DNA of 64,000 nt, from the NCBI GenBank assembly GCA_964602665.1, contig CAZRRH010000004.1, forward strand, positions 16,169-80,168. Reading direction: 5' to 3'. The position numbers and the translations under genes are program-made. Numbering within the stretch: position 1 is the first letter of the stretch; each line of letters begins with the position of its first letter. A model generated the notes under the pieces. The model had not been told where the DNA came from and made no database searches. It saw only the letters and a program-made list of their open reading frames with translations. This document shows, piece after piece, positions 9,000-63,439 of this stretch. This stretch comes from an uncultured Candidatus Saccharibacteria bacterium. GTDB taxonomy: Bacteria > Patescibacteriota > Dojkabacteria > SC72 > WJKH01.

Positions 9000-9045
9000 T
9001 CCGAAATCAATTTCCATTTTTGATCTTAATATTAAACAAATCAGG

Positions 9046-9621: not shown

Positions 9622-9700
9622 AATTTTAAGTTAATAAATAAATTAATTAATAAATTAAACTATTTCATATATAATACTTTTTTAATCATTTGTCAATATG

Positions 9701-46806: not shown

Positions 46807-47892
46807 CTAATCTATTATTTTGACCTCACTTTCTAGCTCTACCCCATACTTTTCCATTACTTCCTCTTTCATTTTCTTTGTGACAGCCAAAATTTCCTCT
46901 CCCGTTGCTTTCTTGTTTGAGACGACACATAAAGCATGAGCTTCATGTACACCTGCATTGCCCATCCATCGCCCTTTCCAGCCTAACTCGTCAAGCAGAC
47001 GACCCGCAGGTATTTTTACATATTCCAAATCATCAACTTTTTGCCAATCTTTCAAGTCGTAGCTTAATTTATCAACAGGATAAGACTGCAAATCCTCAAG
47101 CACCGTCGCCAATTCTTTAAATTTTGCCACTGAAACAACAGGGTTTCTAAAAAAACTCCCACAGCTTCCGACTTTGTTTAAATCCGGCAATTTTCTCTCT
47201 CTTATATTTATCACAGCTTGTGCAACATCTTTTATTGTATAAGGCTCTTTTGCAAATTTAACAAGCTCTTCCTCCAAAGATACATAACGCCCTTTTCTTT
47301 CATGATAACTTGTCTCCAACTTATCTGGATCTTTTTCCAATCTAACATCGACATAAGTAATTATATATCTATCTTCACCACCTTTTAACCTAAAAATTGG
47401 TATTCGATATGTTAAATCAAACTCACTTGCAGCAAAATGAACAAATTTGCCTGTTTGAATATCAAAGGCCTCAAGCCCCACAAAGACATCACAGAAATTT
47501 TGTCCATAAGCAGCTATATTTCCCGCACAGGCACCTCCTACAGTACCAGGTATTAATGCCATGTTTTCTACGCCACCTAGGTTGTTTTCTACTGCGTGCA
47601 TTACAAAATCATGCCAATTCTCCCCTGCTCCAAGACGCATAATTACATGATCCTTTTTGTCCTCTATTATTTCTCGTCCCTTAATATCGATTTTTATAAC
47701 AACACCTTCGTAATCTTTTGTAAAAAGAATATTTGTCGCATCACCTATTATGATTCTTGGAAGATTTTTTATCTCTTCTGATTTTAATAACTGCTCTAAT
47801 TCATCACGATTTTTTATTATTGCAAAGTATTTTGCTTTTATATCAACAGCAAATGAGTTGTATTTTTTTAATGAGAAATCTTTGTGTATCAT
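46807..47892 (-). CDS. murB: UDP-N-acetylenolpyruvoylglucosamine reductase MurB.
   Basis: The FAD-binding domain motifs GGVENMALIPGTVGGACAGNIAAYG are present. 361 aa. Confidence 0.85.
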   Translation of the reverse strand: MIHKDFSLKKYNSFAVDIKAKYFAIIKNRDELEQLLKSEEIKNLPRIIIGDATNILFTKDYEGVVIKIDIKGREIIEDKKDHVIMRLGAGENWHDFVMHAVENNLGGVENMALIPGTVGGACAGNIAAYGQNFCDVFVGLEAFDIQTGKFVHFAASEFDLTYRIPIFRLKGGEDRYIITYVDVRLEKDPDKLETSYHERKGRYVSLEEELVKFAKEPYTIKDVAQAVINIRERKLPDLNKVGSCGSFFRNPVVSVAKFKELATVLEDLQSYPVDKLSYDLKDWQKVDDLEYVKIPAGRLLDELGWKGRWMGNAGVHEAHALCVVSNKKATGEEILAVTKKMKEEVMEKYGVELESEVKIID

Positions 47893-47925: not shown

Positions 47926-49437
47926 TTATCCAATCTGCCTTACATCGCCTCCAAGTTTATTAATCCTATTTGCAATATCCTCATATCCTCTTGAAATAGA
48001 GTAAACATTTCTTAAGATAGAGACACCTTCAGCTCCCAACATTGACAACATTATTATCGCTGCAGGCCTTAGCGCCGGCGGAGCAACAATTTGTGTATTT
48101 TTCATTACCGTTGGACCCTTGATATAAACCCTATGAGGATCAGCTAGAATCATATCGGCTCCAAGTTTCGTTAATTCCATGTAGTAAATTGCCCTGTTCT
48201 CATAAACCCAATCATGGACCAGTGTTTGACCTTCTGCTTTTGTCGCTATTGGAACAAAGAACGGAAGATTATCAATATTAATTCCTGGAAATGGTCTTGC
48301 ATATATTTTCTCATCAAGAGCTTTAAGCGTAGAAGGATATACAGTCAAATCAACAAGATCTGTAAAACCGTTATAAGATTTGTAACTCTTCCCTATTTTA
48401 AACCTAAGCCCCATCGCTCTTAACTTGAGAAGCTCTAATTCAAGAAAATCAATAGGAACACGCTTTATTGTAAGCTCTGAATTTGTCATAATAGCTGCTG
48501 TTATCCAAAACATTGCCTCAATTGGATCTTCACTATTATAATGCTCTACTGTGCGATTGATTTTATCTACCCCGTGTATAGTAAGCGTGGTTGTACCTAT
48601 GCCATCAACTTTAACACCACAATTAAGTAAGAAATTTGCTACATCACAAACCATATAATTTGCGCTCGCCATTTTTATTACTGTGTCACCTACGATTTTA
48701 GATGCAAGCATAAGGATATTCTCCGTACCAGTATCAGATGACTCGTACATAATAATTTTATTTGGTTTCAGATTTTTTGCTTTCACAATATAGTCGTTAG
48801 CTGTTACCTTAATCTTCACACCAAGATCGCTCATGGCATAAAGGTTTGACGCAATAGTTCTTGTGCCAAGAGTACAACCTTGGGCGTGAGGAAGTGTAAA
48901 CTCTGGCAACAAATGAATCAATGGCCCAAGGAACATAAGAATAGTCCTAGTCCTTTTGGCCGATTGCTCGTCGATTGTTTTAAGATTGACTTTTCCAACC
49001 TTTATCTCAAGTGTATCATGGTCAAGCCACTTTGTATTAATACCAATGCTTTGCATAACTTCCAAAATTCTATTTACTTCTTCAATTCTTGGGATTTTAT
49101 GTAAAATTGTCTTACCTTCATTAAGCAAAGCAGCACACAAAAGTCCCATTGCTCCATTTTTTGAGGCATTTACGGTAACTTCACCTGACAACTTTTTACC
49201 ACCATTTATTAAAAAATCCGTACTTGATGGAGCATTTATTATTAATTTGCGATTTAAGACGTTGCTTATTTTCGCTAAAGTATCCGTTGTAAAATTCTGT
49301 TCTCCTTTTTCCATCCTTGCAACAGCACTTTGCGTAGTTTTTAATTTCTGTGCAAGCTGTTCTTGCGTTATGTTTTTGCTTGAGCGAAGCGATTTTATCA
49401 TTCGACCGATTTGCTTATTTATTGTTGGATTTTTCAT
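47926..49437 (-). CDS. murA: UDP-N-acetylglucosamine 1-carboxyvinyltransferase MurA with an N-terminal XRE-type helix-turn-helix domain (fusion).
   Basis: Residues about 10-65, ITQEQLAQKLKTTQSAVARMEKGEQNFTTDTLAKISNVL, are HTH_XRE. Then FLINGGKKLSGEVTVNASKNGA is the MurA N-terminus. The catalytic Cys loop is QGCTLGTRTIA. It is one continuous 503-aa ORF. Confidence 0.85.
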   Translation of the reverse strand: MKNPTINKQIGRMIKSLRSSKNITQEQLAQKLKTTQSAVARMEKGEQNFTTDTLAKISNVLNRKLIINAPSSTDFLINGGKKLSGEVTVNASKNGAMGLLCAALLNEGKTILHKIPRIEEVNRILEVMQSIGINTKWLDHDTLEIKVGKVNLKTIDEQSAKRTRTILMFLGPLIHLLPEFTLPHAQGCTLGTRTIASNLYAMSDLGVKIKVTANDYIVKAKNLKPNKIIMYESSDTGTENILMLASKIVGDTVIKMASANYMVCDVANFLLNCGVKVDGIGTTTLTIHGVDKINRTVEHYNSEDPIEAMFWITAAIMTNSELTIKRVPIDFLELELLKLRAMGLRFKIGKSYKSYNGFTDLVDLTVYPSTLKALDEKIYARPFPGINIDNLPFFVPIATKAEGQTLVHDWVYENRAIYYMELTKLGADMILADPHRVYIKGPTVMKNTQIVAPPALRPAAIIMLSMLGAEGVSILRNVYSISRGYEDIANRINKLGGDVRQIG

Positions 49438-49534: not shown

Positions 49535-50473
49535 ATGACACACGAAGTAGCAACAGAACAAGCACAGATAAGTATAGAAACAGGTTTCCCGACTAATTTT
49601 GCCTATGGACCAATAGCTCCTCTTAACAGCGAATGTCAACCTGTTTTCCCATATTTAAGAGCAGATCAACAAAAGAGCCCTGGTCCGGAATATGAGTTAT
49701 TAACCATCGCTGACCTATTTAGGCTGCCAGATTACTTACCAATTACAGCAGAGGAAGTGGCAGATATTCTTAACAGAACAGCCGCAAGACTAGGAGGCTT
49801 TTTATTATCTTGGAAACCGGATGTAATTCTACGCTTTTTTGATGAAGGGAACTTAACACTACATATCCCCTTTCTAGAAAAGTCTCTTTCATCAGTAACA
49901 GAAGTAGGAGAAAAACAAGGTCCAGATTTTAATAATGCCAGAAATACAAAATGGGCCTCGCTCGCCAATGCAACAACCAGAATATTAACCAGAACTGCTC
50001 AAAGATGGAGCCCAAACCTCCAGACTTTTAACAACTCAATAACAGATGAAATCTTAAGAACAATAGCTCCGGTAACAACAAATCAAGTAGCAAAGACTTT
50101 TGAACTAAGTTTAAGTTTACTTTCTCCTCTAAAACAAAGAAAACCTCTGTTTAAACCGAGAGTTCAGAAACACAGAAAAATAGCGCTAACAGGCGTTGTC
50201 TCACCAATAAAAGAAGAGAGGAAATCTGTAGTTGAAAATTGCTTTGAAGTTGCCACCATTGAATTAAGATCTCCATTAATAAGAGATGATGAAGGTGAAC
50301 TAACTTTATTATATTATCCAACAAGAGATGTTCTATTCAAGCAGAATCCAGCCCGCCCCACAATGCCAAGCCAATATTTCATTGTAATCTTCGATAATGG
50401 AAATGGAAGATACCTTTTGCAAAGAATTAATCCTGTAGATGATATTTATTCAGCACCGCCATTAGTTACCTAA
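49535..50473 (+). CDS. Hypothetical protein, an orphan plus-strand gene inside the minus-strand cell-wall cluster.
   Basis: 312 aa with no recognisable motif. The region appears locally higher in GC by eye. Confidence 0.45.
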   Translation: MTHEVATEQAQISIETGFPTNFAYGPIAPLNSECQPVFPYLRADQQKSPGPEYELLTIADLFRLPDYLPITAEEVADILNRTAARLGGFLLSWKPDVILRFFDEGNLTLHIPFLEKSLSSVTEVGEKQGPDFNNARNTKWASLANATTRILTRTAQRWSPNLQTFNNSITDEILRTIAPVTTNQVAKTFELSLSLLSPLKQRKPLFKPRVQKHRKIALTGVVSPIKEERKSVVENCFEVATIELRSPLIRDDEGELTLLYYPTRDVLFKQNPARPTMPSQYFIVIFDNGNGRYLLQRINPVDDIYSAPPLVT

Positions 50474-50478
50474 AATCA

Positions 50479-51585
50479 CTACAAGAAAGCAACAAGAAGC
50501 CCAATAAGAGCAAAAAACACCGAGAGAAGCCAAAATCTCATGACAATCTTCTCCTCCTTCCAACCGATAGCTTCAAAATGATAATGCAAAGGAGCCATTT
50601 TAAAAAGTCTTCTGCCTGCAACTCTTCTGTAGAATCCTTGCAAAACAGACGAAAAAATTTCTGCAACAACAACTCCAAGCATAATGATAACAGCAAAAAC
50701 GCTATCCAAAAGAACAAAAGCTAAAAATACATATACTCCCAAAGCCAAAGAACCAACATCACCCATTTGTACCCTTGCAGGCTTAATATTAAAGTATAAA
50801 TAAGTTAACAAGCCACCTATTAAAACGCTACTCATAACAGCAACCTCGCTATTACCTTTTGCAATTGCCAATATAACAGACGCAAAAAGTGATGGCAAAA
50901 TAATTCCTGTAGATAATCCATCCATGCCATCAGTTATATTTACTCCGTTTGAAAATAAACCGAGTCCAAAAACGAACAAAGGAATTATAAACCAGCCAAG
51001 ATTTAGACTCCCAATAAATGGTATATTAACGCTATTAATTCCATAAACCGCGGACAGCCAATAAGAAACCACTCCAAACAGTCCCACTTGTAAAAAAATC
51101 TTCTCACCTGCATGTAAACCATTGCCCGGATACGAACCAAGTGCATACCAAAAGTTCTTATACAATCCTATAGGTAAAGTGATCCAATAATATACTCTTT
51201 TTAGAGCCGATTTGTGAATCTGAGCAAGCTTTACATGCTTTTGCAGTGGCAATATTTTACGTGGATGACCAAAAATTACAAGTATGTCATCAATTCCTCC
51301 CATAAGCGCCATAGCAACAAATGCTCCGCTAACAACAGATATCACTCTCCAATCAAGCTCTTTTTTAAAGAAATATAAGGCAAAGATAATTACAATATAT
51401 GATAAAATAAATATCAAACCACCCATTATTGGTGTACCAAGTTTTTTCTTAACCTCAGGAAGTATTGAAGCAAAATCATTTTTTATCTGCCTAACGACAT
51501 TTTTTTTATAAAGCAGTTTTATAATAAACGGCGCCAATAAAAAAGATACCAGACAAGATAATATAATTAATTTTAAGTATTCCAT
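50479..51585 (-). CDS. mraY: Phospho-N-acetylmuramoyl-pentapeptide transferase MraY (polyprenyl-phosphate sugar-phosphate transferase family).
   Basis: KKLGTPIMGG, NGVNITDGMDGLSTG and MGDVGSLALG are the MraY/WecA signature loops. 368 aa, polytopic. Confidence 0.8.
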   Translation of the reverse strand: MEYLKLIILSCLVSFLLAPFIIKLLYKKNVVRQIKNDFASILPEVKKKLGTPIMGGLIFILSYIVIIFALYFFKKELDWRVISVVSGAFVAMALMGGIDDILVIFGHPRKILPLQKHVKLAQIHKSALKRVYYWITLPIGLYKNFWYALGSYPGNGLHAGEKIFLQVGLFGVVSYWLSAVYGINSVNIPFIGSLNLGWFIIPLFVFGLGLFSNGVNITDGMDGLSTGIILPSLFASVILAIAKGNSEVAVMSSVLIGGLLTYLYFNIKPARVQMGDVGSLALGVYVFLAFVLLDSVFAVIIMLGVVVAEIFSSVLQGFYRRVAGRRLFKMAPLHYHFEAIGWKEEKIVMRFWLLSVFFALIGLLVAFL

Positions 51586-51596
51586 ATATTTATAAT

Positions 51597-52355
51597 TTAT
51601 TTTAATCGTCTAAGTCCACCATCATCACCTGCCACCTCGAGTTGTTTCTTAGTCCAGCAGACGCCATCTTTATCTTTCTCCAACCAATCTTGATCTAATA
51701 ACGATCCTCTTGAGTCTACAACAATTATCTCGCCAATTCTTACACCATCTTCAATTCCATAATGTTGTGTACTGTGAGCATATTTAATGCTGATCAAATT
51801 GTCGTCATCATCTTTTGTAACTGTAGTAATAATCGCAATATGATCCCCTCTTCTGACACCCTTAAGGCGCAATAAATCACCAGGCCTAACATCATTTAAC
51901 AAAACTTCAGTTGTATTTTGACCATTTGTCATAAGATCAGCTCCAATATGCTCAATAGGCCTAAGCCAATTAACAATTCTTTTATACAAAGACCTGTTCG
52001 CAGGGAATTTAATATTCGAATATAAATTTCCTTTACCGATCTCCTTTAAATAAGTATCAAGGACATGCGCCACAAAACCTGAGCAATCAACTCCTAGCCC
52101 AACCGAGCGCATAAACTCTCTAATCTCCACAACAGACTTCCCAGAAAGCTCAAAGCCTCTTAATTTAGCAAATATCATTACTTCTTGTGCAATTTCATCA
52201 GGCAACCCCTTCCCTACTTTTGATCTAAGTTCTGCACGAACCCTTTTGACATTGCGATAATATGGTGTTGGAACAATTTGTCCACCCAAATCCAGCTTGA
52301 AATAGTCTTTAATAAGCTGCTTTGTTTTTTCTGGTAAACTGCTAATCTGTGACAT
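51597..52355 (-). CDS. NlpC/P60-like papain-fold peptidase domain protein.
   Basis: The Cys motif is GVDCSGFVAHVL (DCSG). The downstream His is in RPGDLLRLKGVRRGDHIAIIT. 252 aa. Confidence 0.5.
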   Translation of the reverse strand: MSQISSLPEKTKQLIKDYFKLDLGGQIVPTPYYRNVKRVRAELRSKVGKGLPDEIAQEVMIFAKLRGFELSGKSVVEIREFMRSVGLGVDCSGFVAHVLDTYLKEIGKGNLYSNIKFPANRSLYKRIVNWLRPIEHIGADLMTNGQNTTEVLLNDVRPGDLLRLKGVRRGDHIAIITTVTKDDDDNLISIKYAHSTQHYGIEDGVRIGEIIVVDSRGSLLDQDWLEKDKDGVCWTKKQLEVAGDDGGLRRLK

Positions 52356-53667
52356 ATATTTTTTGATAAATTTTATCTACAAGTTTTCTGTATCTATCGG
52401 ATTCTACCATATTTGATAATGTTTGTATTCTAACAAGCTCGCCACCCGGCGAAACTATATGCCCATCATCAACAACGAGCATAAAGATCTCGTCATCAGG
52501 ATCCTTAATATCATCAATACTCCAGCCATCTCGAGCATACTCAAAAGAGCCATTCTGGTCGACCTTATATACCCCCGAGGGTATATGGGTATTTATCTCA
52601 ATAGCAATTTCTTTAATATTGCGCATAATTAACTGAGAAGCATTTAAGACAGAAAAATCTTGAATTAAAACTTCTTCTTTCTCAATCTGTTCTTCAAACT
52701 GCTCAAGGTGTATTCTTTTTAATGGCATAAGACCTTGCATTTGCATAAGTTTGGTATGCATAGATGTACTTGCAGGCTGTCTTGCATTAACCTCAATTAA
52801 AAAAACCTCACCTTGCTTATCTATAACAAAATCAAGACCAAAAAGACCTTTAAAACCATGCTCAGACATTTTATTGCCAACATTAATGATTATTTGTCTC
52901 ATAGAATCAAGTGATTTATCGGTAAGCCGGCTTCTCATACTCCAATCATTGCCAACTGTCCCACCTGCCATGGCAGTACATTTCTCCCATCCTGTTATCT
53001 GATATGATAATCCGCCAAAAGAGACCCCTTCTCTACCTATACATGCATTTATTGTCCAGCTATCCCCTTCTATATATTTGGCTATCCTTGCAATCCTTTT
53101 AGGAAATTTGGATTGCTCGTTTAAGAAATCGTGCTCATTCTTAATAAAAACAGTGCTACTTCCTGTATGCCCTCTGTCGTACTGTATAACAAACTTGTCA
53201 TATTTAAAATCTGAGTATCTTATATCGCCAAGTTTTGCAATTTTTGTCTCAGGGAAGTTCACATTAGAATCATTCAGAAGATCGTACTGTGATAATTTTA
53301 GCTCAAATTTGCGATTAAGCGCAGTCGTTGTATTGATAATTTTGTATCCGAGCTTTTTTGCTGTAACTTCTATATTGTTCGCTATTTTAAATACCCATAT
53401 GTGAGGTGGATTTGGGTTGTTAAGATTCGTCTTTTTTATATACTCTTGTACTAGTTTATTCTGCAAGAGTCTATTTGAGTTTCGAAATAGCTGATTATAC
53501 TTTCCTGTCTCTTGCTCAAGACAAAACACATTAACGCCTTCTTTTTGCATGTAATCAACTATCTTGTTGTAATCAATGCAAATTATGTGATAATTAGGAA
53601 TCTCCTTCTCAAGCCCAAGCGCCCGTTCTACATCATTGCATATGTAATATATATTGGGTTTTTGCAT
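52342..53667 (-). CDS. ATP-grasp superfamily enzyme, specificity unknown.
   Basis: The C-terminal motif GLFGLDFVIDKQGEVFLIEVNARQ (E-x-N Mg ligands) is present. 441 aa. It contains the in-frame palindrome-encoded peptide HIPSGVYKVD. Confidence 0.6.
   Translation of the reverse strand: MQKPNIYYICNDVERALGLEKEIPNYHIICIDYNKIVDYMQKEGVNVFCLEQETGKYNQLFRNSNRLLQNKLVQEYIKKTNLNNPNPPHIWVFKIANNIEVTAKKLGYKIINTTTALNRKFELKLSQYDLLNDSNVNFPETKIAKLGDIRYSDFKYDKFVIQYDRGHTGSSTVFIKNEHDFLNEQSKFPKRIARIAKYIEGDSWTINACIGREGVSFGGLSYQITGWEKCTAMAGGTVGNDWSMRSRLTDKSLDSMRQIIINVGNKMSEHGFKGLFGLDFVIDKQGEVFLIEVNARQPASTSMHTKLMQMQGLMPLKRIHLEQFEEQIEKEEVLIQDFSVLNASQLIMRNIKEIAIEINTHIPSGVYKVDQNGSFEYARDGWSIDDIKDPDDEIFMLVVDDGHIVSPGGELVRIQTLSNMVESDRYRKLVDKIYQKIYVTD
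52566..52587. repeat. Copy of the palindromic element TATATACCC-CCGA-GGGTATATg, in frame inside the ATP-grasp gene (encodes HIPSGVYKVD).
   Basis: 9-bp left arm, 8 of 9 right arm. The Ser codon in the centre differs from the rluD copy (TCG vs AGT) while the arms are conserved. Confidence 0.5.
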
Positions 53668-55653
53668 CTAAAGTCTCCTTAATCTTAGATACTCTAAAAC
53701 AAACGCTTGGTAATCAGCCATATCTATAACATTTGGCGTATTTTTAACGAAATCGGACCTCTCGTTAAATTCTCCTCTTCTACGGAAAGCTAGGTAATCA
53801 AGCACAAACGCTGAATAATCTCCCATTGATACCCCAGCAACTCCATCTATGTCTATATCTATTGTCGCCTGACTATCTACACACTGACCAACATCATTGC
53901 AGGTTTTGCCTCCTGTACATGTACCACAACTACCTGTACATCCATCACTTCCACATTGCCTTCCCGCACAATTTGGGGTACACCCTCCTGGAATAGGATT
54001 ACATGAAAATTGACCCGTTTTCCTTGTTTGAGCTCCTGAATATGGATAGACTTCTTCTGACTTTATACCCTGCACCGACCACCATACATAATTTTTGTTT
54101 GACTGCAATTCTACTTCATATCTATTTGTAGTTACATTATGATCTGCTATATCCCCTTCTAATACATTTGCCCAATCACTCTCTGGTTCCCGATTTATTC
54201 TGATCATATACTTACTTGCTCCCTGAACCACATCCCAGGTAAATACTCCTTTACCATTTACACACTCAAACTTTAAGTTCTGTGGAGCTGAAAGCGGAAG
54301 TTCAGCTGTATCAGAGAAATCAACTCTATACACATAAACTCCATAAGGTTGCCATGTTGTTGCAAGAAAATACATTGTTTTACCGTTGTCTTTTAGTAAA
54401 GAACTCGTTGTATAGGTGCCATAATAAGTCCATGTGCCACTTTTGGGAGATCTTGATTTATTGGGCATTAAAATCTTCTCTTCCCATGGCCCTTGTGGTT
54501 GATCTGCTAAGTACATATAGACACCAAGAGTTGAGTCTGGCCTTCCAGTCATGAGAAGATATTTTCCTAAGTATGGGTTATAAACGACACTAAACTCTGC
54601 AATTGTCATGTTTTGTATCGCTTCCTGACCATCTGCATAATTTTTAAAATAAGTATAGTTACTATCCTTAGGAGAAATCACCCATTTTGCACTATTTTTT
54701 ATAAAATTTAGGTCTTTTGATCTAACCCACTGATTATCGTTTGTAAAATACTCCCAACCATCTAAATCAGTGGTGTTCAAAAACTTACTTGTTTCTATAC
54801 GAGCTACCTTTAACCCACCAAATCTTCCTGCAGGACTTCCAAACATATAAATATAATCGCCTTTTTGTACAAAAGATGCCATAGTAAAGTCGTACCTTTC
54901 ATTCGGGGCACCTGCAATACTCCACTTATAATCATTTCCTTTATAATCCTTAAATAAGCCGCTGTCGTTCCAATCCATTTTCGCAATATAAGATGCATAG
55001 CTTTTATGATTGTGCCCCCCAACCGTATTTACATCCATATACTGAGAAAATAAGCCGACACATTGGCCGTTAGAATCTAAAACAGAAAACATTGAATTAG
55101 GAATTGTATAACATCCACCTGCGCCTCCACTGCCCACATTATGACAGCTAAAGAGAGCTCTGCTTGGTCTATCCCCACCAGCTATGTAACCATTAAATGT
55201 CAAATTCTCAACATTAGTACTGTTTGAAAAAGCTACAAAAAAATTATTTTCCGCTTGATTAGAAGGGAAATTGGGATTCGTTCCTGTGTAAGTTATGTTT
55301 TCTAATAATGTGTCGCCAAAATTAAGATAAAATTTATCTCCGCATTTAGTAATTGAGCCTAAATCTGTTCCTGCTACATTTTGATAGTTATTATTTTTCA
55401 CAGAAATCCCGTCCTCATTGTCCCATAAATATGATGTACCAGCAATTTTATTAATTCTATAAACCGAAAAAGATGGGTCATCAGCTTCGTCTGATGTATA
55501 CATTAATGTTCCTGTAGGCTCGCTAGCATCGCTATCAGTTGGCGCATAATCGTTCTTTTCATCGTTAAACTCGCTTAAAGAGTATAAAACCCAAATAATG
55601 ATTAATACAAAAGTTATTACTACGATAATTATGCTGAACTTTTTCTTGTTCAT
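53668..55653 (-). CDS. Secreted or anchored surface protein (661 aa). It has a predicted beta-rich catalytic-like domain, an FN3-like module, a Cys-rich linker and dockerin-like Ca-binding repeats at the C-terminus.
   Basis: Signal anchor MNKKKFSIIIVVITFVLIIIWVLYSL. FN3-like SAPQNLKFECVNGKGVFTWDVVQGASKYMIRINREPESDW. Cys-rich CNPIPGGCTPNCAGRQCGSDGCTGSCGTCTGGKTC. C-terminal DIDIDGVAGVSMGDYSAFVLDYL and NVIDMADYQAFVLEYL. Confidence 0.55.
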   Translation of the reverse strand: MNKKKFSIIIVVITFVLIIIWVLYSLSEFNDEKNDYAPTDSDASEPTGTLMYTSDEADDPSFSVYRINKIAGTSYLWDNEDGISVKNNNYQNVAGTDLGSITKCGDKFYLNFGDTLLENITYTGTNPNFPSNQAENNFFVAFSNSTNVENLTFNGYIAGGDRPSRALFSCHNVGSGGAGGCYTIPNSMFSVLDSNGQCVGLFSQYMDVNTVGGHNHKSYASYIAKMDWNDSGLFKDYKGNDYKWSIAGAPNERYDFTMASFVQKGDYIYMFGSPAGRFGGLKVARIETSKFLNTTDLDGWEYFTNDNQWVRSKDLNFIKNSAKWVISPKDSNYTYFKNYADGQEAIQNMTIAEFSVVYNPYLGKYLLMTGRPDSTLGVYMYLADQPQGPWEEKILMPNKSRSPKSGTWTYYGTYTTSSLLKDNGKTMYFLATTWQPYGVYVYRVDFSDTAELPLSAPQNLKFECVNGKGVFTWDVVQGASKYMIRINREPESDWANVLEGDIADHNVTTNRYEVELQSNKNYVWWSVQGIKSEEVYPYSGAQTRKTGQFSCNPIPGGCTPNCAGRQCGSDGCTGSCGTCTGGKTCNDVGQCVDSQATIDIDIDGVAGVSMGDYSAFVLDYLAFRRRGEFNERSDFVKNTPNVIDMADYQAFVLEYLRLRRL

Positions 55654-56498
55654 TACTTAACTCCTGACAAAATTATAACCGGAACATCAATTTTTATCCC
55701 CTTATCTAAGGCTGTTTTATACCCGCCCAACGCGAGCCCTCCCTCATATGAACAATTATAACCTAATTTCCACAATTCTTCACTATTTGCAATTATTTGA
55801 TCGTCAGGCACAATCCAGCCGTAACTCATAATCCCTCTCACTTGCTTAGCCCTATAACCAACATTATCAACAATCGCCTCAGCAATACTTCTACCCTCTT
55901 TTTTGTCGCCTCCTACGAGCTTATTTACATACTCAGTTTGCACAATATGTATTCTTGGACATTTAATCTGTTTATCTACATAACCGAGTGCAATTCCGCA
56001 AGCAGTAGTCCCACTAGAACTTGCAATAAAAATATCTGTACAATCGGGCAACTGCTCAATCAGCTCATAGGCGATATCTTTAAACCCTATTAATGCAATA
56101 TCATCTATTGAACCTCTTAATAAAACTGCGCCTGTATTATTTGCAAATTTTACACTCTCTTTGAGCGGATTTGCGCTATATACAATTTTTGTACTATTTC
56201 CTGCGAACTTAGCCATGCGATCTTTTTTACTCTGACTAATTTGAGGAGACAAAAAAAGTACAAGATTACAATTCAATTTCTGACACGCATAAGCCGCACT
56301 TATTCCTGCATTTCCAGATGAAGAAATAACAAAATCTCTCTTACCCTCTTTGTAATAAAACAGAATTTGTGTAAAAATACTCCTGTCCTTGGCAGATCCA
56401 GTTATATTCTCGTATTCTTTTTTCACCCAGTAATTTTGACCCGGTGCTTTCTCACAAGATATAAAATTCTTGTTTTTTAATAAAATGTTATTATCCAT
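55653..56498 (-). CDS. Pyridoxal-phosphate-dependent enzyme, fold type II (Trp-synthase-beta/threonine-synthase/cysteine-synthase-like).
   Basis: The PLP-lysine motif NITGSAKDRS (G-S-x-K-D-R). The glycine loop ASSSGTTACG. 281 aa. Confidence 0.6.
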   Translation of the reverse strand: MDNNILLKNKNFISCEKAPGQNYWVKKEYENITGSAKDRSIFTQILFYYKEGKRDFVISSSGNAGISAAYACQKLNCNLVLFLSPQISQSKKDRMAKFAGNSTKIVYSANPLKESVKFANNTGAVLLRGSIDDIALIGFKDIAYELIEQLPDCTDIFIASSSGTTACGIALGYVDKQIKCPRIHIVQTEYVNKLVGGDKKEGRSIAEAIVDNVGYRAKQVRGIMSYGWIVPDDQIIANSEELWKLGYNCSYEGGLALGGYKTALDKGIKIDVPVIILSGVK

Positions 56499-57885
56499 TT
56501 AAAAGTCTTTCTCTTATTAAGTCTACACTACTTGAACTCATTATGACTATAATTGTGTTTTTATCACTTATTTTATCCAAATAATCAAGCATATTATCTT
56601 CTATTGGCATATATTGTACATTAGGTTGCGTCTCTTTTATGGCATCTGTGATATCTTTGCCGTAGATCCTGTCTTCTTTTGGAGTCTCTTTTTTAGCAAT
56701 AATTCTTGGGATTATAACCTCATCTGCATTATCAAAAGCACCGGCATACCATTTTAGAGTTTCGCGATTTTGATTAAGTGACAACCTTGGATAATAAACT
56801 GCAATAATCTTCTTGTCTGGATATTTATATCTTAAAGCATCAAGAGTTGCTTTAGCCTTAACAGGTGAATGAGCAAAATCGTCAATTATCGTTGCTCCCT
56901 TTATGTTTTGACCTACAGTCTCAAGTCTTCTCGCCGTGCCATTAAATGTGTTCACAGCGTTTTTAAGAGCATTTATATCGACACTATTTTCGCAAGCCGT
57001 AAAAATAATTGCTATTGCACCAACAAGGTCTTCAATATTGTGCTTGCCAATAAGCTTTGTCTTAAATTTACCTATTAAATTTTCTCCGTTATAAAGCTCA
57101 AATTCACCGTCAGGCTTTATGTTTCGCGCAAAAAAATCGGGATCTCCCTTTCCATCTATTCCATATTTGACACATCCATCTAAGTTTAGCCTAGAAATGT
57201 TTTCTCCATTAACATTTATCACGATTTTTTTGCGCGTTATATCAGCAAGCTTTTTAAAGGATTCAATATAATCTTCCTCCGTTCTGTAAATATCTGCATG
57301 ATCCCATTTAAGTGAAGTAATCAATGTATAATCGGGCTCGTAATAAAGGAATTTAGGCGTCATATCATAGTTAAAAGCGCTGATATACTCATCCCCTTCC
57401 ACGACAGAATATTCTGTATTGTTAGAAACTCTAACTCCGTCATCATAATCAATTGGCTTTCCTCCTATAAGGAAATTAGGGTTTTTGCCTAGTTTATCAA
57501 GAAAACATGCAACTGCAGTAGTTATTGTGCTTTTGCCATAACTACCTGCTATAACTATAGATTTTGAACTTGTTATGTATTTGCCGACCAAGTATGGGAA
57601 AGGTTTTATTTCTTTGCCAAGCTTTTTGGCATATATAAATTCAGGGTGATTTGGGTTTTGCAAAAGTGCCGAGTTGCCTATGATAACAAGATCTGCTTCT
57701 TTTACAAGCTTTAGGTCATACTCAAGTTCTGTGTATTTTATACCTTTTTTTGCAAGTACAGATTTAGCCGGTTCCCAAACTTTATTGTGCTCAGACCCTG
57801 TGACTTCCCATCCAAGATCTCGCATCATAACTGCCAAAGGAGCAATTGCAGACCCCGCAATTCCAATAAAATGTACTTTACTCAT
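56491..57885 (-). CDS. Mur ligase family protein (UDP-N-acetylmuramate--L-alanine ligase MurC, or Mpl-like murein peptide ligase).
   Basis: The N-terminal Rossmann HFIGIAGSAIAPLAVMMRDLGWEVTGSE is MurC/Mpl-type. The P-loop is IAGSYGKSTITTAV. 464 aa. Confidence 0.8.
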   Translation of the reverse strand: MSKVHFIGIAGSAIAPLAVMMRDLGWEVTGSEHNKVWEPAKSVLAKKGIKYTELEYDLKLVKEADLVIIGNSALLQNPNHPEFIYAKKLGKEIKPFPYLVGKYITSSKSIVIAGSYGKSTITTAVACFLDKLGKNPNFLIGGKPIDYDDGVRVSNNTEYSVVEGDEYISAFNYDMTPKFLYYEPDYTLITSLKWDHADIYRTEEDYIESFKKLADITRKKIVINVNGENISRLNLDGCVKYGIDGKGDPDFFARNIKPDGEFELYNGENLIGKFKTKLIGKHNIEDLVGAIAIIFTACENSVDINALKNAVNTFNGTARRLETVGQNIKGATIIDDFAHSPVKAKATLDALRYKYPDKKIIAVYYPRLSLNQNRETLKWYAGAFDNADEVIIPRIIAKKETPKEDRIYGKDITDAIKETQPNVQYMPIEDNMLDYLDKISDKNTIIVIMSSSSVDLIRERLLNG

Positions 57886-58561
57886 TTATTTTTGACTTTA
57901 ATAGTTTTAAATCAGTACTCCATTTATTTCCATCGAAATACTCCAAGCCCTCAAATTGAAGTTTGTAAAGTGAAGCTTTTGTATATATTGTCCCAAGATA
58001 TACATATTTTAACCCAAGTTCTTTTGCTTCCATTATCGCACGAAGCATCATCCCCATACCTGCATTTCTCTCCCTGTATGATAGGTCATAAAAAGGGTAT
58101 GCATAATGCAACGATTTATCAGTCTGTAATGTCATACAATAGCCAAAAACATTTCCTGCTTCAGTATAAACAAAAAGTTTGTTAAAAAACTGCTCTTTAA
58201 AAAGTCTTTTGATCGTTTGCGGGCGAAAGATTTTTTTGGCATTATCTTCTTGATTATAGAAATCAACCGCTATTTTTCCGATTTTATAATTATAGTTTTT
58301 TATATCAATATCAAGCATGTCTAAACCCATGTACTCTGTTTTAGATAATATCCTGCGATTTTCGCTGTTTAAATTAAATTTCGATAAATCTATGCGCAAA
58401 CTTCTAGCAAGATAAAATCTACCAGGAGCTATCCTTGACGATAGGAATCCGCTAGCTAATATTTGGTCAATATTATCTCCTTGCTCCATTTGCCCATAAA
58501 CAGAGTATGGATAAACATATTTAGCAGGATTTGCTGATTTTTCAACAAAAATGATTTTCAA
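57878..58561 (-). CDS. Bpt/ATE-family (GNAT-fold) aminoacyl-tRNA--protein transferase-like protein. The ORF track gives a TTG start.
   Basis: The C-terminal region SLHYAYPFYDLSYRERNAGMGMMLRAIMEAKELGLKYVYLGTIYTKASLYKLQFEGLEYFDGNKW matches the ATE_C motif of bacterial Bpt (..YAKRSLG...ILWQIEQAK.LGL.HVYLGYWI..C.KMAYKARF.PLE). 227 aa, typical Bpt length. Confidence 0.55.
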   Translation of the reverse strand: MKIIFVEKSANPAKYVYPYSVYGQMEQGDNIDQILASGFLSSRIAPGRFYLARSLRIDLSKFNLNSENRRILSKTEYMGLDMLDIDIKNYNYKIGKIAVDFYNQEDNAKKIFRPQTIKRLFKEQFFNKLFVYTEAGNVFGYCMTLQTDKSLHYAYPFYDLSYRERNAGMGMMLRAIMEAKELGLKYVYLGTIYTKASLYKLQFEGLEYFDGNKWSTDLKLLKSKINE

Positions 58562-58596
58562 TTTATGATTTAAGTTCTAAAATTTAAGATTCAAGC

Positions 58597-58770
58597 TTAT
58601 TTCTCTTCCTCGATTACAAGCAATTCCAGTTCGCCATCTTCTTTTATCGAGGCTACTTCCAAATCAGACCCACAAATTGGACAACTTATGATATCTCCAA
58701 CTTCATAAGTTGGTTTCTCGAGCTCTATATCATTAGCACACTCCGGACAAACTACTTTTTTCTCTTCCAT
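58597..58770 (-). CDS. Unannotated 57-aa zinc-ribbon protein resembling the LysW/ArgW amino-group carrier protein family. It is below the ORF-track length cutoff.
   Basis: ATG at 58768-58770 (complement), TAA at 58597-58599. The translation is MEEKKVVCPECANDIELEKPTYEVGDIISCPICGSDLEVASIKEDGELELLVIEEEK. It matches the LysW pattern CPECGAEL.L.NP..GE.V.C.DCGAELEV....L.LEP...E... with an acidic tail, though the C-terminal residue is Lys, not Glu. Confidence 0.5.
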   Translation of the reverse strand: MEEKKVVCPECANDIELEKPTYEVGDIISCPICGSDLEVASIKEDGELELLVIEEEK

Positions 58771-58846: not shown

Positions 58847-59989
58847 CTACTCTTCGCTCAACTTTGCCGTTACCTCAGAGACCTGTCCATCTCGCCATAT
58901 TTTAATTTTTATTTCATCTCCTACTTTATATTTTTGAATCATCTGAGCCAAAGATACAAAAACTTTTTCGCCATCAATTTCCATTATGATATCACCTCTT
59001 TTTATTCCTGCTAATTCTGCGCCAGAGTTTGGGACAACCCTCTCAACCAATGCTCCCGGAACTACATTATAATAATAAGCTTCAAAGTCTGAGATTACTT
59101 GAGCAACTTGCACTCCTAGCATCGGCTTAATAAATTTGCCGTATTTGCGGTACTGAGAGAGCCTTTCTTTTACAACATTTATTGGCAATGCAAAAGAAAT
59201 ATTATCCGCACCAGCAACAGTAGCAAAATTTATCCCAATAACTTGCCCTGATAAATTTAACAGTGGTCCACCAGAGTTACCAAAATTAATTGATGCGTCA
59301 GTTTGAATAACCTGTTCATAGTTTTTTATAGATCTATTTAAGCCACTTATAACACCGGTTGTGACGCTACCAGCAAACTCTCCTAATGGCGTACCTATTG
59401 CTATTACAGATTGCCCTTCTGCTAAAAGATCACTATCTCCAATTTCAAGTGGCTGTAAATTAACATCTTCACAATCAACAAACTCTTTATCGTCTATACT
59501 GTTTTTTTTATGACAACTGCCAAGCACAAGCAACGCTATATCATTTACTGGATCAACATGTATAGTCTGTACATCAAACTGCCTTGAATCGTCTGTGATA
59601 ACTAAATAGGACTTTGAGCTATCACTTACTACATGATTATTTGTTAAAACTAATTTATTATCAATTACAAATCCGCTACCAATTTTCATACTATCATTCA
59701 TTACCCCATCGCTTCCCAATGACAAATCGTTTACAGCTACACTAACGACGCTACTTTTAGATTTTTTTACTACATTAATTACGGTGCTTTCTTCTTTTAT
59801 TACAGTAGTTGTACTACCATTTTCTTCTTTTATATTAATGAAGCTATGATTTTCAAGCCAAGAGACAGTAGCTGGATAAACCTTAACGCCGATCCAGAAT
59901 CCGGCTAAAATAAGTACAATTCCTGCAAAAATAAATCCAGATATCTTCAGGTATTTTTTGAGATTACTTTTCTTCTCGACTTCTTCCAT
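58847..59989 (-). CDS. htrA: HtrA/DegP-family serine protease with a PDZ domain.
   Basis: An N-terminal transmembrane anchor. The trypsin-fold triad has LTNNHVV (His), a later Asp, and GNSGGPLLN (Ser). The C-terminal PDZ domain is GIKRGDIIMEIDGEKV. Confidence 0.9.
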   Translation of the reverse strand: MEEVEKKSNLKKYLKISGFIFAGIVLILAGFWIGVKVYPATVSWLENHSFINIKEENGSTTTVIKEESTVINVVKKSKSSVVSVAVNDLSLGSDGVMNDSMKIGSGFVIDNKLVLTNNHVVSDSSKSYLVITDDSRQFDVQTIHVDPVNDIALLVLGSCHKKNSIDDKEFVDCEDVNLQPLEIGDSDLLAEGQSVIAIGTPLGEFAGSVTTGVISGLNRSIKNYEQVIQTDASINFGNSGGPLLNLSGQVIGINFATVAGADNISFALPINVVKERLSQYRKYGKFIKPMLGVQVAQVISDFEAYYYNVVPGALVERVVPNSGAELAGIKRGDIIMEIDGEKVFVSLAQMIQKYKVGDEIKIKIWRDGQVSEVTAKLSEE

Positions 59990-61310: not shown

Positions 61311-62180
61311 TTAATCAACAAAAGAAAGTGGTACCAAATCAATTTCATCAAAACACTCATCTGCGCCTATAAAAGAAATTGTATTTCCTTTTGAAGATAT
61401 ATTAACAGTACATTCATCAATTTTTCTATCTATGACAAAGTTCTCTTTATTTAACGGAACATGCCCAAATCCTGATAGTACGACAATGTTTCCTTCATGT
61501 TTGATGTAATCATTATAATCCATTGAATGGGTAATTATAGCTAATACTCCTCTTTGATTTAACGCAACAAGAAGATTCGCATAGAGATATTTGCCAACAT
61601 AAACAATTTTATCTTTCACATCAAGGCTTCTTATATCTCTCTCTGTATAAATCCCTTCCCCATTTCCAAGTACCAATAAATCACCAATTATACTTTTTTT
61701 TAGCGGAGTTTTTTTTGCTACAACTTCAAAATCAACTGTCTTAGCATTTATAACTATTTTTATTCCATTTTTAACATCTATGACCTGTCCTTCAAAGTTA
61801 GCGTTTACGACAGTATCATCTGTATAATCAACTATTTGCACTATTCCTTCGTCAATAAGACCCAGGTTCGCGACACCACTTTTATCTGGGTAAATAACTC
61901 TAACAGACATCTGATCAGCTCCTTTCTCAGATGCTATAACTGTTTGATCATCCACAAACTGCCCATCCACCACTTGTACAATTTCTTTACACCTGTTTGG
62001 TTTTATCTTTAATGCATTAGCCAAATCAAGCTGTTCAATTACTTTATTCCCCTGAACACTATACAATATATCTCCTTTATTAATAATATCTTTTTCTTTT
62101 ACATATATTTGTGCAGAATTTGGAATATCAACTGTAAATCTTTTTATTGAGCTTTGTTTTTTAAGTAATCGCCTTTTCAT
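61311..62180 (-). CDS. Hypothetical protein, possibly a degenerate metallophosphoesterase-like fold.
   Basis: 289 aa. The weak motifs IIGDLLVLGNGEG, IITHSMDY and GNIVVLSGFGHVP resemble calcineurin-like phosphoesterase blocks. It is translationally coupled (ATGA) to the upstream gene. Confidence 0.45.
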   Translation of the reverse strand: MKRRLLKKQSSIKRFTVDIPNSAQIYVKEKDIINKGDILYSVQGNKVIEQLDLANALKIKPNRCKEIVQVVDGQFVDDQTVIASEKGADQMSVRVIYPDKSGVANLGLIDEGIVQIVDYTDDTVVNANFEGQVIDVKNGIKIVINAKTVDFEVVAKKTPLKKSIIGDLLVLGNGEGIYTERDIRSLDVKDKIVYVGKYLYANLLVALNQRGVLAIITHSMDYNDYIKHEGNIVVLSGFGHVPLNKENFVIDRKIDECTVNISSKGNTISFIGADECFDEIDLVPLSFVD

Positions 62181-63439
62181 TTAAGAAGTCCCCATAATTT
62201 TAGTCTTTTCCTGTTATCCTTGCTTGTAGCGCCATACACAACAGGTTTGTTTCTACAATCTACAATAATACTATCAAAAACTGTTTTCAGAGGATCAAAG
62301 ATTATCTTTTCTGATTGAAATTTACCCCTATCAGTAGCTTTTATGTTAAAAACATAATTTTTAGACAAATAATCAGGTATATCGATAATATTTATTTCAG
62401 GAGTATAAACATAGCTATAATCCTGATCAAACTGATATTTTGCAAAAACTTTCCTTATGTCTTTCCTGTCAAATACCGAAGGTATTAAAACCTTTTTTGC
62501 AGGCGGAATTATATCTTTTGATCTAATTATTATATCTTTTGCATTACTTCCAAAAAAATAGTTGTACCCCCAGTTTATTATGTTTTTATTTGGATCCACA
62601 AACAAATCAAAGTCTTTATTAAATCCGAGTCCGTCAATTATTAACTTGGATAAAAACTTAATATCAAGTAATCTCGTAGCTGAGCCCGTTATTATCACGG
62701 CTTGACTGTTCTTTGCAAAAGCATCTTTCTTTCTAGAAAACTGCATGAGAGATTTAAGAAAATAAGCGTTATATGCATCATAAACACTTTCATCAACAAT
62801 GTTTTCATTGTCAGAATAAATTTCATTTGCCCAAAGATTTATATCAATATTGTTAGTTACATAGCTCACTCTAGAAATCACACCATCTTTTATCTGTAGT
62901 ACAGTATCATCTAAATCTGATCTAAGCTCATATTGTCCCGCATTCTCTAGACTTTCGCCGTCAATTCGGACTATTTTTATGCTATGCTTATTAACATCAA
63001 GATATAACATTTCACGATAACCGAGTTTCATCGTAACTTTTCTTATAATCTCTTCATGTGACTTTAAATCGATTTTTTTAACATATTCTCTAGGGAAATC
63101 TATCAACATTGCTGATATTCTTTCTTCTGCAGCAATCTCATACTCAGATATTCCAACATATTCTGACACCAAAGGCTTCATGCTTATTATATTTGCATCA
63201 AGATTATCAAGGATTTGCCATCCAAACTTCTTCCCTAAATCCCTAAAATATGTAATCCAAAAGCTATTAGAACCTTCTTCTAATATTGAGAGTAGTTTAT
63301 CTGTATTTAAAGCGGTAAAATCATTAAGGATATAAGATTCCCCATTTGCGAGATTGGTATAAGCTAAAGATGAGTAAATACCGTCTGAATCTATGTGGAC
63401 TTTAAGTTTGCATTTCATCTCTTGCGCCAATATTAGCAC
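62177..63439 (-). CDS. Hypothetical protein, possibly a divergent actin-like ATPase fold (FtsA/PilM-like).
   Basis: 420 aa. The N-terminal KVHIDSDGIYSSLAY and later AVIITGSATRLLD weakly resemble the phosphate-1 and adenosine motifs of actin-like ATPases. Confidence 0.4.
   Translation of the reverse strand: MLILAQEMKCKLKVHIDSDGIYSSLAYTNLANGESYILNDFTALNTDKLLSILEEGSNSFWITYFRDLGKKFGWQILDNLDANIISMKPLVSEYVGISEYEIAAEERISAMLIDFPREYVKKIDLKSHEEIIRKVTMKLGYREMLYLDVNKHSIKIVRIDGESLENAGQYELRSDLDDTVLQIKDGVISRVSYVTNNIDINLWANEIYSDNENIVDESVYDAYNAYFLKSLMQFSRKKDAFAKNSQAVIITGSATRLLDIKFLSKLIIDGLGFNKDFDLFVDPNKNIINWGYNYFFGSNAKDIIIRSKDIIPPAKKVLIPSVFDRKDIRKVFAKYQFDQDYSYVYTPEINIIDIPDYLSKNYVFNIKATDRGKFQSEKIIFDPLKTVFDSIIVDCRNKPVVYGATSKDNRKRLKLWGLLK

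Follow-up and report, generated by a model that had tools for sequence, protein, structure and literature searches.

A lysine-terminated zinc ribbon of the LysW fold pairs with a fold-type II PLP enzyme and recurs beside peptidoglycan genes in Patescibacteria

We analyzed a window of 64,000 nucleotides, meaning the whole stretch of DNA under study (assembly GCA_964602665.1, contig CAZRRH010000004.1, positions 16,169 to 80,168), from an uncultured Candidatus Saccharibacteria bacterium placed by GTDB in the Dojkabacteria of the Patescibacteriota. Our subject is a small zinc-ribbon gene and the genes that accompany it; positions are those of the window. The GC content is about 36% across the window, which holds type IV pilus genes, gyrB, dnaB, prfA and a murB / HTH-murA / mraY region. 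The genes of interest lie on the minus strand and comprise the 57-aa zinc ribbon (58597..58770), a 227-aa protein with the fold of the ATE1/Bpt aminoacyl-tRNA transferases (ATE-like, 57878..58561), a 464-aa ligase of the MurC/Mpl clade acting on UDP-N-acetylmuramic acid (UDP-MurNAc) and bearing an Mpl-type insertion loop (56491..57885), a fold-type II pyridoxal-phosphate (PLP) enzyme (PALP, 55653..56498), a DUF4185 protein (53668..55653), an ATP-grasp ligase of an uncharacterised family (52342..53667), an NlpC/P60-like cysteine amidase (P60-like, 51597..52355) and MraY (50479..51585). A sequence-only reading of this DNA had proposed that the ribbon resembles the LysW amino-group carrier and works with the ATE-like transferase and the Mur ligase; every open reading frame (ORF) that it named is present, at its coordinates and in its orientation.

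The small gene (58597-58770, minus strand) encodes the protein MEEKKVVCPECANDIELEKPTYEVGDIISCPICGSDLEVASIKEDGELELLVIEEEK, which has two CxxC motifs, is net acidic and ends in the free tail IEEEK. It is a real, widely conserved gene with the LysW fold, as that reading had surmised. The protein scores 38.8 bits against the Pfam model Zn_ribbon_LysW, above the gathering cutoff of 27, and a profile of its family retrieves, among solved structures, Thermococcus 5k2m_E as the best match (E=1e-6), followed by Thermus 3wwl and Sulfolobus 3vpb, all of them LysW proteins. The AlphaFold2 (AF2) model (pLDDT 82.8) contains five strands and leaves only residues 53-57 free, about five after the last strand; the globular domain with zinc-binding cysteine pairs that defines LysW is thus present. 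The acidic body has a net charge of -6.5 at the median. Comparison with the gene on a sister contig gave 9 synonymous and 3 non-synonymous codon changes, a synonymous bias that supports a genuine coding sequence. A word-indexed homologue search returned only two near-identical proteins, and phmmer over 1.84 billion representatives recovered many relatives.

These phmmer matches fall into three groups: proteins ending in lysine, classical LysW proteins ending in glutamate (EDWGE, TDWGE, DDWEE), and proteins with long acidic tails. The window protein belongs to the first group, whose tails read VEEEK, IEEEK or xDEGK, with variants IKGK, VKGK, VVDK, TTYK, FKSK, EEYK and LEQK, so that the terminal lysine is the sole universal tail residue. 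In 57 relatives from genome loci the tails are DEGK (55), EEEK (1) and NEGK (1), with lysine directly before the stop codon in all 57, and an independent sample of 69 relatives gave DEGK in 46, EEEK in 14, EEGK in 6, and IEEK, VEEK and DAGK in one each. The substitution of lysine for the LysW glutamate, raised at the outset as a caveat, is therefore invariant throughout the family. In the third group (MVxCPECExDLDIEEDEVDEGE...) the tails are long and poly-acidic, with ends such as ...DY or ...GD(M/S); its members P0146, P0164-P0170, P0185, P0190, P0202, P0233 and P0239 are neither of the EDWGE nor of the lysine type, and several have aberrant C-terminal extensions.

The terminal lysine bears directly on whether the ribbon is a canonical LysW or ArgW acting in lysine or arginine biosynthesis. 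The Pfam ribbon domain passes its cutoff and some homologues are labelled 'lysine biosynthesis protein LysW' in JGI and NCBI, both of which would favor this assignment. In LysW and ArgW, however, the terminal glutamate of a C-terminal EDWGE motif holds the substrate, and the motif is recognised by the GSWGR sequence of the ATP-grasp enzymes LysX and ArgX (PMC10433800). The window ribbon ends in IEEEK and has no EDWGE, and its scores against the NCBIfam LysW equivalogs NF041070 and TIGR01206 are 33.6 bits against a cutoff of 75 and 31.1 against 53.2, respectively. GSWGR is found in 0 of 45 orthologues of the cluster ATP-grasp, domain-library scans gave that enzyme no RimK or LysX family match, and annotation of the window, and of the loci scanned with Pfam, revealed no LysZ-, LysY-, LysJ- or LysK-like gene. 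A canonical role is effectively refuted, and on this evidence the LysW label on lysine-type homologues is misleading.

To place the ribbon in its genomic context, we compared homologous genome loci (numbered L001 onwards), retrieved within +/-10 kb of an anchor gene. A first sample of 80 loci was anchored on the ATE-like protein, with neighbours scored, and is biased toward ATE-like contexts. This bias was checked in two ways: lysine-type ribbons with unusual tails were looked up and their neighbourhoods inspected, and metagenome contigs were scanned independently with the PLP family as anchor. Counts from the latter were restricted to 69 loci with at least 350 bp of upstream sequence, of which 21 'long' loci extend at least 6 kb on both sides.

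Both samples identify the same partner for the ribbon. Among the ATE-anchored loci, ribbon and PALP occur together in 44 and are both lacking in 7, with no discordant locus; the pairs are arranged head-to-head in 55 of 56 cases (median gap 72 bp), and all 69 PLP-anchored loci have a divergent ribbon beside PALP. The pair also persists outside cell-wall contexts: next to rpoB/rpoC in L087, L088 and L089 (the last from Dojkabacteria), next to the threonyl-tRNA synthetase gene in L090, and among hrcA-grpE-dnaK and other housekeeping genes in L097 and L110. In the window, where the ribbon gene immediately precedes the ATE-like and ligase genes and PALP comes last, the order is an exception confined to its lineage. 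What the ribbon is obligately paired with is the fold-type II PLP enzyme and not the tRNA transferase. No fusion of ribbon to PALP or to any other protein was found in the top 120 PALP matches or among the long ribbon matches.

The PLP enzyme (55653..56498) was rightly recognised as fold-type II, matching PF00291 with 124 bits. Its family has an invariant Schiff-base lysine and an invariant SSSGN carboxylate-binding loop; its profile matches include ThrC, serine dehydratase and aspartate racemase. The family stands at about the same distance from threonine synthases, serine dehydratases and aspartate/serine racemases, with the aspartate racemase / serine dehydratase group among its nearest relatives of solved structure. 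In NCBI its name is simply 'PLP-dependent lyase/thiolase'. Alignments of PALP to the ThrC models begin near model position 64, which led us to consider whether the ribbon might be a detached N-terminal zinc ribbon of an archaeal-type threonine synthase; no ThrC model matches the ribbon.

One reading of such strict pairing across a shared divergent promoter makes the ribbon an accessory or regulatory subunit that binds non-covalently, its tail plugging or gating the active site of a free-amino-acid racemase or dehydratase that supplies a D-amino acid or keto acid, with the ATP-grasp enzyme and the amidase performing unrelated wall chemistry (for example as a D-amino-acid branch ligase and a muropeptide-recycling peptidase). 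In keeping with this, ribbon-PALP pairs exist with neither ATP-grasp nor P60-like gene nearby, the PLP enzyme retains a complete active-site signature of the free-amino-acid type, and Enterococcus faecium offers the precedent of a racemase and an ATP-grasp D-Asp ligase in one operon. However, a structural partner would not need one exact C-terminal residue to be invariant across tails as different as DEGK, EEEK, KGK and VVDK, the fold is that of a known covalent carrier, and PALP, ATP-grasp and P60-like genes share overlapping operons and stand-alone units away from wall genes. We consider an accessory subunit unlikely, though by no means negligible.

These shared operons extend the pair to a four-gene module. 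In L094, a single operon of overlapping genes, read divergently from the ribbon, comprises PALP, ATP-grasp, P60-like and MraY, with module homologues matched at E=2.7e-68 and, for P60-like, 1.5e-57. The ATP-grasp gene is contiguous with PALP and P60-like in L094 and L096-L110, and within this set L096-L102 and L108-L110 contain a stand-alone unit (divergent ribbon and PALP, in places a small ORF, then ATP-grasp and P60-like) among housekeeping genes. A P60-like homologue follows PALP directly in L087, L088 and L095 (in L088, hhalign probability 99.7%, E=2e-25), and L130 shows the order [MurC-MurB][Ddl][MurF][MraY][P60-like][ribbon(-)][PALP][ATP-grasp]. Across the 21 long PLP-anchored loci, the ribbon is present in 21, ATP-grasp in 16, P60-like in 17 and MraY in 19. 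The ATP-grasp and P60-like proteins are themselves fused in L080:5837-7861, the only locus in which Pfam detects the P60 domain of the fusion, below its cutoff; ORF lengths point to probable fusions of the same kind in L059:3254-5215 and L064:5994-7976. The ATP-grasp (52342..53667) and P60-like (51597..52355) genes, noticed earlier merely as lying downstream in the same direction, are thus both recurrent members of the module.

The module ATP-grasp enzyme matches PF02655 with 41 bits and NF005096 with 132 bits, the latter below cutoff, and its profile reached no solved structure below E=0.03 and no LysX, RimK or Ddl structure at E<=1. L130 encodes a canonical Ddl (335 bits, cutoff 243) alongside it, so the module enzyme is not the housekeeping Ddl; its own score against the Ddl model TIGR01205 is 17 bits against a cutoff of 245. 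In the P60-like family, Cys91 (within G.DCSGF), His172 and His194 are invariant, and none of its members has a signal peptide, the N-terminus being not signal-like. Together these features suggest a cytoplasmic cysteine amidase, with Pfam scores below threshold. In L110 PALP and ATP-grasp are separated by a further ORF of about 173 aa (9024-9545, plus strand), with a sub-threshold Methyltransf_25 match (20.7 bits against 27), and equivalent gaps of about 500 bp occur in L098, L099, L101, L102, L108 and L109. The DUF4185 gene of the window (53668..55653; PF13810, 106 bits) is absent from between PALP and ATP-grasp in the related loci tabulated and is a lineage-specific insertion outside the conserved module. 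The DUF4185 protein itself (53668-55653, minus strand) has a cysteine-rich C-terminal region and a dockerin-like tail; its counterpart on the sister contig L001 is a shorter protein, after which come a fragment of an IS1595 transposase and an unknown ORF of 700 aa.

Gene content also bears on the idea that the ribbon is a single-use ribosomal precursor, in the manner of ribosomally synthesised and post-translationally modified peptides, mycofactocin or the pearlins, whose C-terminal lysine would be modified by the PLP enzyme and cleaved off by P60-like to give a small molecule, either a modified lysine or a cofactor, with no recycling of the carrier. The trio of ribbon, PALP and P60-like in L087, L088 and L095 has no ATP-grasp gene within 10 kb, the terminal residue is invariant, a weakly methyltransferase-like ORF lies inside some operons, and both mycofactocin (from the C-terminal Val-Tyr of MftA) and CysO-CysM-Mec provide precedents. 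Against this, spending a folded 55-aa zinc protein on each product molecule would cost too much for a wall component made in bulk, the LysW fold typifies carriers that are recycled, and the presence of ATP-grasp in 16 of 21 long loci, sometimes fused to the peptidase, suggests a cycle of reloading and unloading. Single use seems to us decidedly improbable.

The association with peptidoglycan synthesis, which the sequence-only reading had proposed for the small carrier, is supported: the module lies beside mraY and mur genes in at least three different gene orders, and MraY accompanies it in the 19 of 21 long loci counted above. The usual Parcubacteria-type order is murB(-), ATP-grasp, P60-like, mraY, ATE-like, MurC/Mpl-like ligase, ribbon(-), PALP(+), as seen in Magasanikbacteria, Paceibacteria, Taylorbacteria and others, sometimes with a MurD-like gene next. 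This gene directly follows PALP in at least 18 loci. Its product, a MurD-like ligase, is divergent, scoring 122-154 bits where the cutoff is 212, and the gene lies just downstream of PALP, usually adjacent and convergent (L037, L038, L041, L043, L066, L068, L070, L072, L073, L076, L085, L131, L133, L148, L150, L159); the substrate of the ligase may differ from that of canonical MurD. Where MurE lies beside the cluster (L007, L009-L012, L014-L016; e.g. L015:7674-8972), its specificity motif reads T(A/S)(E/D)D(P/T)R, with the arginine kept and the asparagine replaced by aspartate. The corresponding motif is DNPR in E. coli and DNPA in S. aureus (PMC3829189). The variant is a weak hint at a non-standard, carboxylate-bearing third residue. 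A scan of 2.18 Mb of cluster-proximal DNA for MurI and Alr motifs found none and is uninformative on genome-wide absence.

Within the window, MraY (50479..51585, minus strand) matches TIGR00445 with 168 bits as well as PF00953, MurB (46807-47892, minus strand) matches NF000755 with 324 bits, and the HTH-MurA fusion (47926-49437, minus strand) matches NF006873 with 315 bits plus HTH_3. In this fusion an XRE-type helix-turn-helix (HTH) domain (HTH_3, residues 14-65) precedes a full MurA. A core-gene table for Parcubacteria lists murA under COG1396, an HTH regulator COG (PMC4508563). The fusion may thus be widespread. A 448-aa protein (20905-22251, plus strand) ends in a VanY-type D-Ala-D-Ala carboxypeptidase domain, which implies that the window organism has stem peptides terminating in D-Ala-D-Ala.

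The ATE-like protein and the Mur ligase belong to the same neighbourhood in most Parcubacteria but form a separate module. The earlier assignment of the 227-aa protein (57878..58561) to the Bpt/ATE group held for the fold. ATE_C, the GNAT-type catalytic domain, scores above its cutoff, the AF2 model (pLDDT 90.9) has the overall ATE1 fold, and the FemAB domain (PF02388) is not detected. At the N-terminus the protein departs from that group: ATE_N has no match in the protein, which has a single cysteine and belongs to a family without an invariant one, so that the N-terminal cysteine cluster is lacking; the best arginyltransferase equivalog score is 48.5 bits against a cutoff of 252. A profile-versus-PDB sequence search with the family reached no ATE1 structure. 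The family comprises more than 1200 clusters in Patescibacteria, and no dedicated tRNA gene was found in the 30 gene clusters examined.

The 464-aa ligase (56491..57885), correctly taken at the outset as MurC/Mpl-like, matches both models below cutoff: 222 bits for TIGR01082 murC (cutoff 335) and 196 bits for TIGR01081 mpl (cutoff 388). Across its family the ranges are 222-260 bits against 335 for MurC and 184-244 against 388.7 for Mpl, MurC being slightly higher. Mpl is marked by an (S/T)AFFDKRSK loop preceded by tyrosine and by the C-domain motifs DDFAHHP and EPRSNT (PMC3060825). An Mpl-type loop aligns without gaps in our family, as TARWDNKAK in L062 and ISAFNYDMTPK in the window, and the C-domain motifs DDIAHSP/DDFAHSP and EPNSGNR are Mpl-like. 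For the Parcubacteria orthologue in L062, the best solved matches are the Mpl structures 3hn7 and 3eag, ungapped through the loop, whereas alignment to MurC structures, which have no insertion following the DE(S/Y)D motif, requires a 7-residue gap at that point. The ligase is apparently the only MurC-type ligase in the cluster. Because MurE, MurF and the divergent MurD-like ligase are present in these clusters, it is probably the housekeeping MurC-type enzyme, as the sequence-only reading had itself cautioned. The presence of MurD-like genes likewise weakens the idea that the ATE-like protein and the Mpl-like ligase bypass MurC and MurD by ligating a dipeptide.

In many loci the ATE-like gene shares 1-8 nt with the ligase gene, and in-frame fusions of the two occur in L030:9950-11992, L038:9950-12202 and L054:386-2443; a survey of Mur chimeras includes no ATE-like::MurC type (PMC10214165). 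These observations bear on how the ribbon relates to the two enzymes. The original proposal made the ribbon an acceptor or carrier, loaded in a tRNA-dependent manner, for the ATE/Bpt-like transferase, the Mur ligase or both, or else a protein tag. In its favor, only 35 bp separate the window ribbon from the co-oriented ATE-like gene downstream, the epsilon-amino group of lysine is the type of acceptor used by Fem-type tRNA-dependent transferases, and a single cluster holds all these genes in most Parcubacteria. However, the ATE-like and ligase genes occur without ribbon and PALP in L010, L011, L015, L051 and L063, the ribbon module occurs without either of them in L087-L090, L094, L096-L110 and L130, and the ATE-like protein is fused to the ligase and never to a module component. 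Since each set occurs without the other, we treat them as separate modules; the adjacency of ribbon, Bpt-like gene and Mur ligase seen in the window is lineage-specific, and a joint function is very improbable. L094, which has a canonical FemAB gene nearby and no ATE-like gene, further disfavors it and suggests that the ATE-like protein plays a Fem-like role on wall precursors. Most simply, the ATE-like/ligase pair probably provides a tRNA-dependent aminoacylation that accompanies either the first ligase step or the formation of branches. Overall, the observation that started this work is confirmed; its interpretation is partly supported: the carrier idea and the cell-wall link survive, but the tRNA transferase and the Mur ligase drop out as partners of the ribbon.

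Carrier, ATP-grasp enzyme, tailoring enzyme and amide hydrolase together reproduce the anatomy of a LysW system, which leads us to a 'mirror-image LysW' reading. From the fold, family membership, invariant tail, synteny, co-occurrence and fusions we infer, with a probability of about 45%, that the ribbon is a covalent carrier or substrate that works with the PLP enzyme, the ATP-grasp enzyme and the amidase to make a cell-wall building block; covalent loading, the substrate, the type of reaction and the product are proposals in what follows. The logic would be that of LysW with inverted chemistry, the carrier offering the epsilon-amino group of its C-terminal lysine on a free tail of about five residues. 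The ATP-grasp enzyme would first join the side-chain carboxyl of L-Glu (or L-Asp) by an amide bond to this amino group. Side-chain tethering is assumed because the substrate of a fold-type II PLP enzyme must have its alpha-amino group free and, as a rule, its alpha-carboxylate as well. PALP would then convert the tethered residue, most plausibly by epimerisation to the D-form, and the P60-like amidase would free the product and regenerate the carrier. The product would finally enter the synthesis of peptidoglycan precursors, for instance as D-Glu for MurD, which requires it. Perhaps half of the weight given to the carrier falls on this specific D-Glu/D-Asp cycle. The individual steps have precedents: the E. 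faecium D-Asp ligase and the graspetide ligases are ATP-grasp enzymes that join an Asp or Glu side-chain carboxyl to a lysine epsilon-amino group, and NlpC/P60 enzymes classically hydrolyse gamma-D-glutamyl-diamino-acid amides. CysO-CysM-Mec and SbnA exemplify PLP-dependent beta-replacement that depends on a carrier or an amine. ATP-grasp ligases for D-amino-acid cross-links have been noted (PMC2922099).

A second chemistry fits nearly as well. Following the logic of CysO-CysM-Mec and SbnA, PALP would add an aminoacrylate to the lysine epsilon-amino group, the amidase would clip off the modified lysine, and the ATP-grasp enzyme would add a new lysine to the carrier. Whichever chemistry applies, several points weigh against a covalent carrier. 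The adduct on the ribbon lysine is itself inferred, and we know of no precedent, nor any obvious necessity, for tethering an amino acid just to racemise it. The reaction type of the PLP enzyme is not fixed by its sequence, ThrC giving the top profile score and the phosphate loop SSGTT being CysK-like. Position -3 of the tail is variable (E, K, V, T), so the constraint falls on the terminal lysine alone, and the P60-like proteins score 18.1-21.3 bits against Pfam NLPC_P60, under the cutoff of 23. Moreover, no ATP-grasp gene lies within 10 kb of the ribbon-PALP pair in L087-L090, and several Magasanikbacteria loci lack both ATP-grasp and P60-like genes within 10 kb; either the missing genes are encoded elsewhere in those genomes, or the ribbon-PALP pair is able to act alone.

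Taking both modules together, we tentatively propose, as well short of an even chance, that Patescibacteria and possibly their relatives build a peptidoglycan amino acid on a lysine-tailed 'carboxyl-group carrier protein'. A glutamate or aspartate would be epimerised on it, or its lysine alkylated to a diamino-dicarboxylate, with loading by the ATP-grasp enzyme and unloading by the NlpC/P60-like amidase, and the ATE1-fold and Mpl-like proteins would contribute a tRNA-derived stem-peptide residue. If so, a very large bacterial radiation would have two enzymatic routes not yet described, within a cytoplasmic phase of wall synthesis that is canonical in other respects.

The arrangement had been called undescribed, and we likewise found no description of the lysine-terminated LysW-like family, its pairing with a PLP enzyme or the ATE-like/Mur-ligase unit in Patescibacteria, nor anything relevant on racemases of the candidate phyla radiation, in literature searches whose coverage excluded most subscription journals. 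To our knowledge, LysW-type carrier chemistry is known only with a C-terminal glutamate and only for lysine, arginine and a few secondary metabolites; a second polarity, with a C-terminal lysine and a PLP enzyme, would, if true, widen the concept of the carrier protein. Peptidoglycan synthesis in the cytoplasm is commonly taken to be universal and, in essence, solved; with an additional conserved module beside mraY, one of the wall precursors (the candidates being D-Glu, D-Asp or an unusual diamino acid) would have a different synthesis or supply in Patescibacteria, a radiation said to account for a large share of bacterial diversity. The module bears on how ultra-small, auxotrophic, host-dependent bacteria build a wall, on their muropeptide chemistry and on lineage-specific antibiotic targets. 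In addition, the labels 'lysine biosynthesis protein LysW' and 'threonine synthase/dehydratase' mislead metabolic reconstruction of these genomes.

Several other features of the window were recorded. A 453-aa XerC/XerD-like tyrosine recombinase (30682-32043, minus strand) matches its model at about residues 124-285 and 368-440, which suggests an insertion of about 80 aa in the catalytic domain. Two large ORFs encode 1741 aa (23579-28804, plus strand) and 1036 aa (309-3419, minus strand). Upstream of the ribbon, the HtrA gene is intact (380 aa) in the window (58847-59989) and in L002-L006, and in L001 only a 91-aa PDZ ORF is found (9654-9929). No family match was obtained for two conserved neighbours of the S41 protease (289 and 420 aa; 61311-63439, minus strand; also in L001-L006) or for the 312-aa ORF between murA and mraY (49535-50473, plus strand).

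The closest known system to the proposed module is that of LysW/ArgW with LysX and LysK, from which it differs at each component. The carrier tail there presents a carboxylate, the glutamate of EDWGE, and here an amine, the terminal lysine; the ATP-grasp enzyme belongs to another family than LysX and lacks GSWGR; and the hydrolase is a cysteine amidase of the NlpC/P60 type, whereas LysK is an M20 metallopeptidase. Tailoring is assigned here to a fold-type II PLP enzyme rather than to a kinase, a reductase and an aminotransferase, and the context is peptidoglycan synthesis rather than lysine or arginine biosynthesis. CysO-CysM-Mec of M. tuberculosis is similar in that a small carrier inserts its C-terminus into a fold-type II PLP enzyme and a dedicated peptidase releases the product, and SbnA in that an amine serves as nucleophile in a PLP-dependent beta-replacement; CysO, however, is ubiquitin-like, with a C-terminal thiocarboxylate and an E1-like activator, Mec is a JAMM metalloprotease, and no ATP-grasp enzyme takes part. 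The D-aspartate ligases of E. faecium and Lactococcus and the graspetide ligases share the ATP-grasp coupling of an Asp or Glu side chain to a lysine epsilon-amine, and the enterococcal ligase likewise serves peptidoglycan and is co-encoded with a racemase. In these cases, by contrast, the acceptor is a lysine of the stem or core peptide without any carrier protein, and the enterococcal racemase is PLP-independent. The fusions of ATP-grasp and P60-like proteins resemble the synthetase/amidase architecture of glutathionylspermidine synthetase/amidase. Compared with ATE1/Bpt and with Fem/MurM, the ATE-like protein lacks ATE_N and its cysteine cluster and is embedded in, and sometimes fused to, a Mur-ligase gene, so that a wall precursor is a likelier substrate for it than protein N-termini. 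The 464-aa ligase, finally, resembles Mpl and MurC in its three Mur-ligase domains and UDP-binding N-domain, and Mpl in its loop after DEY and its DDFAH-type and EP(R/N)xxN-type C-domain motifs.

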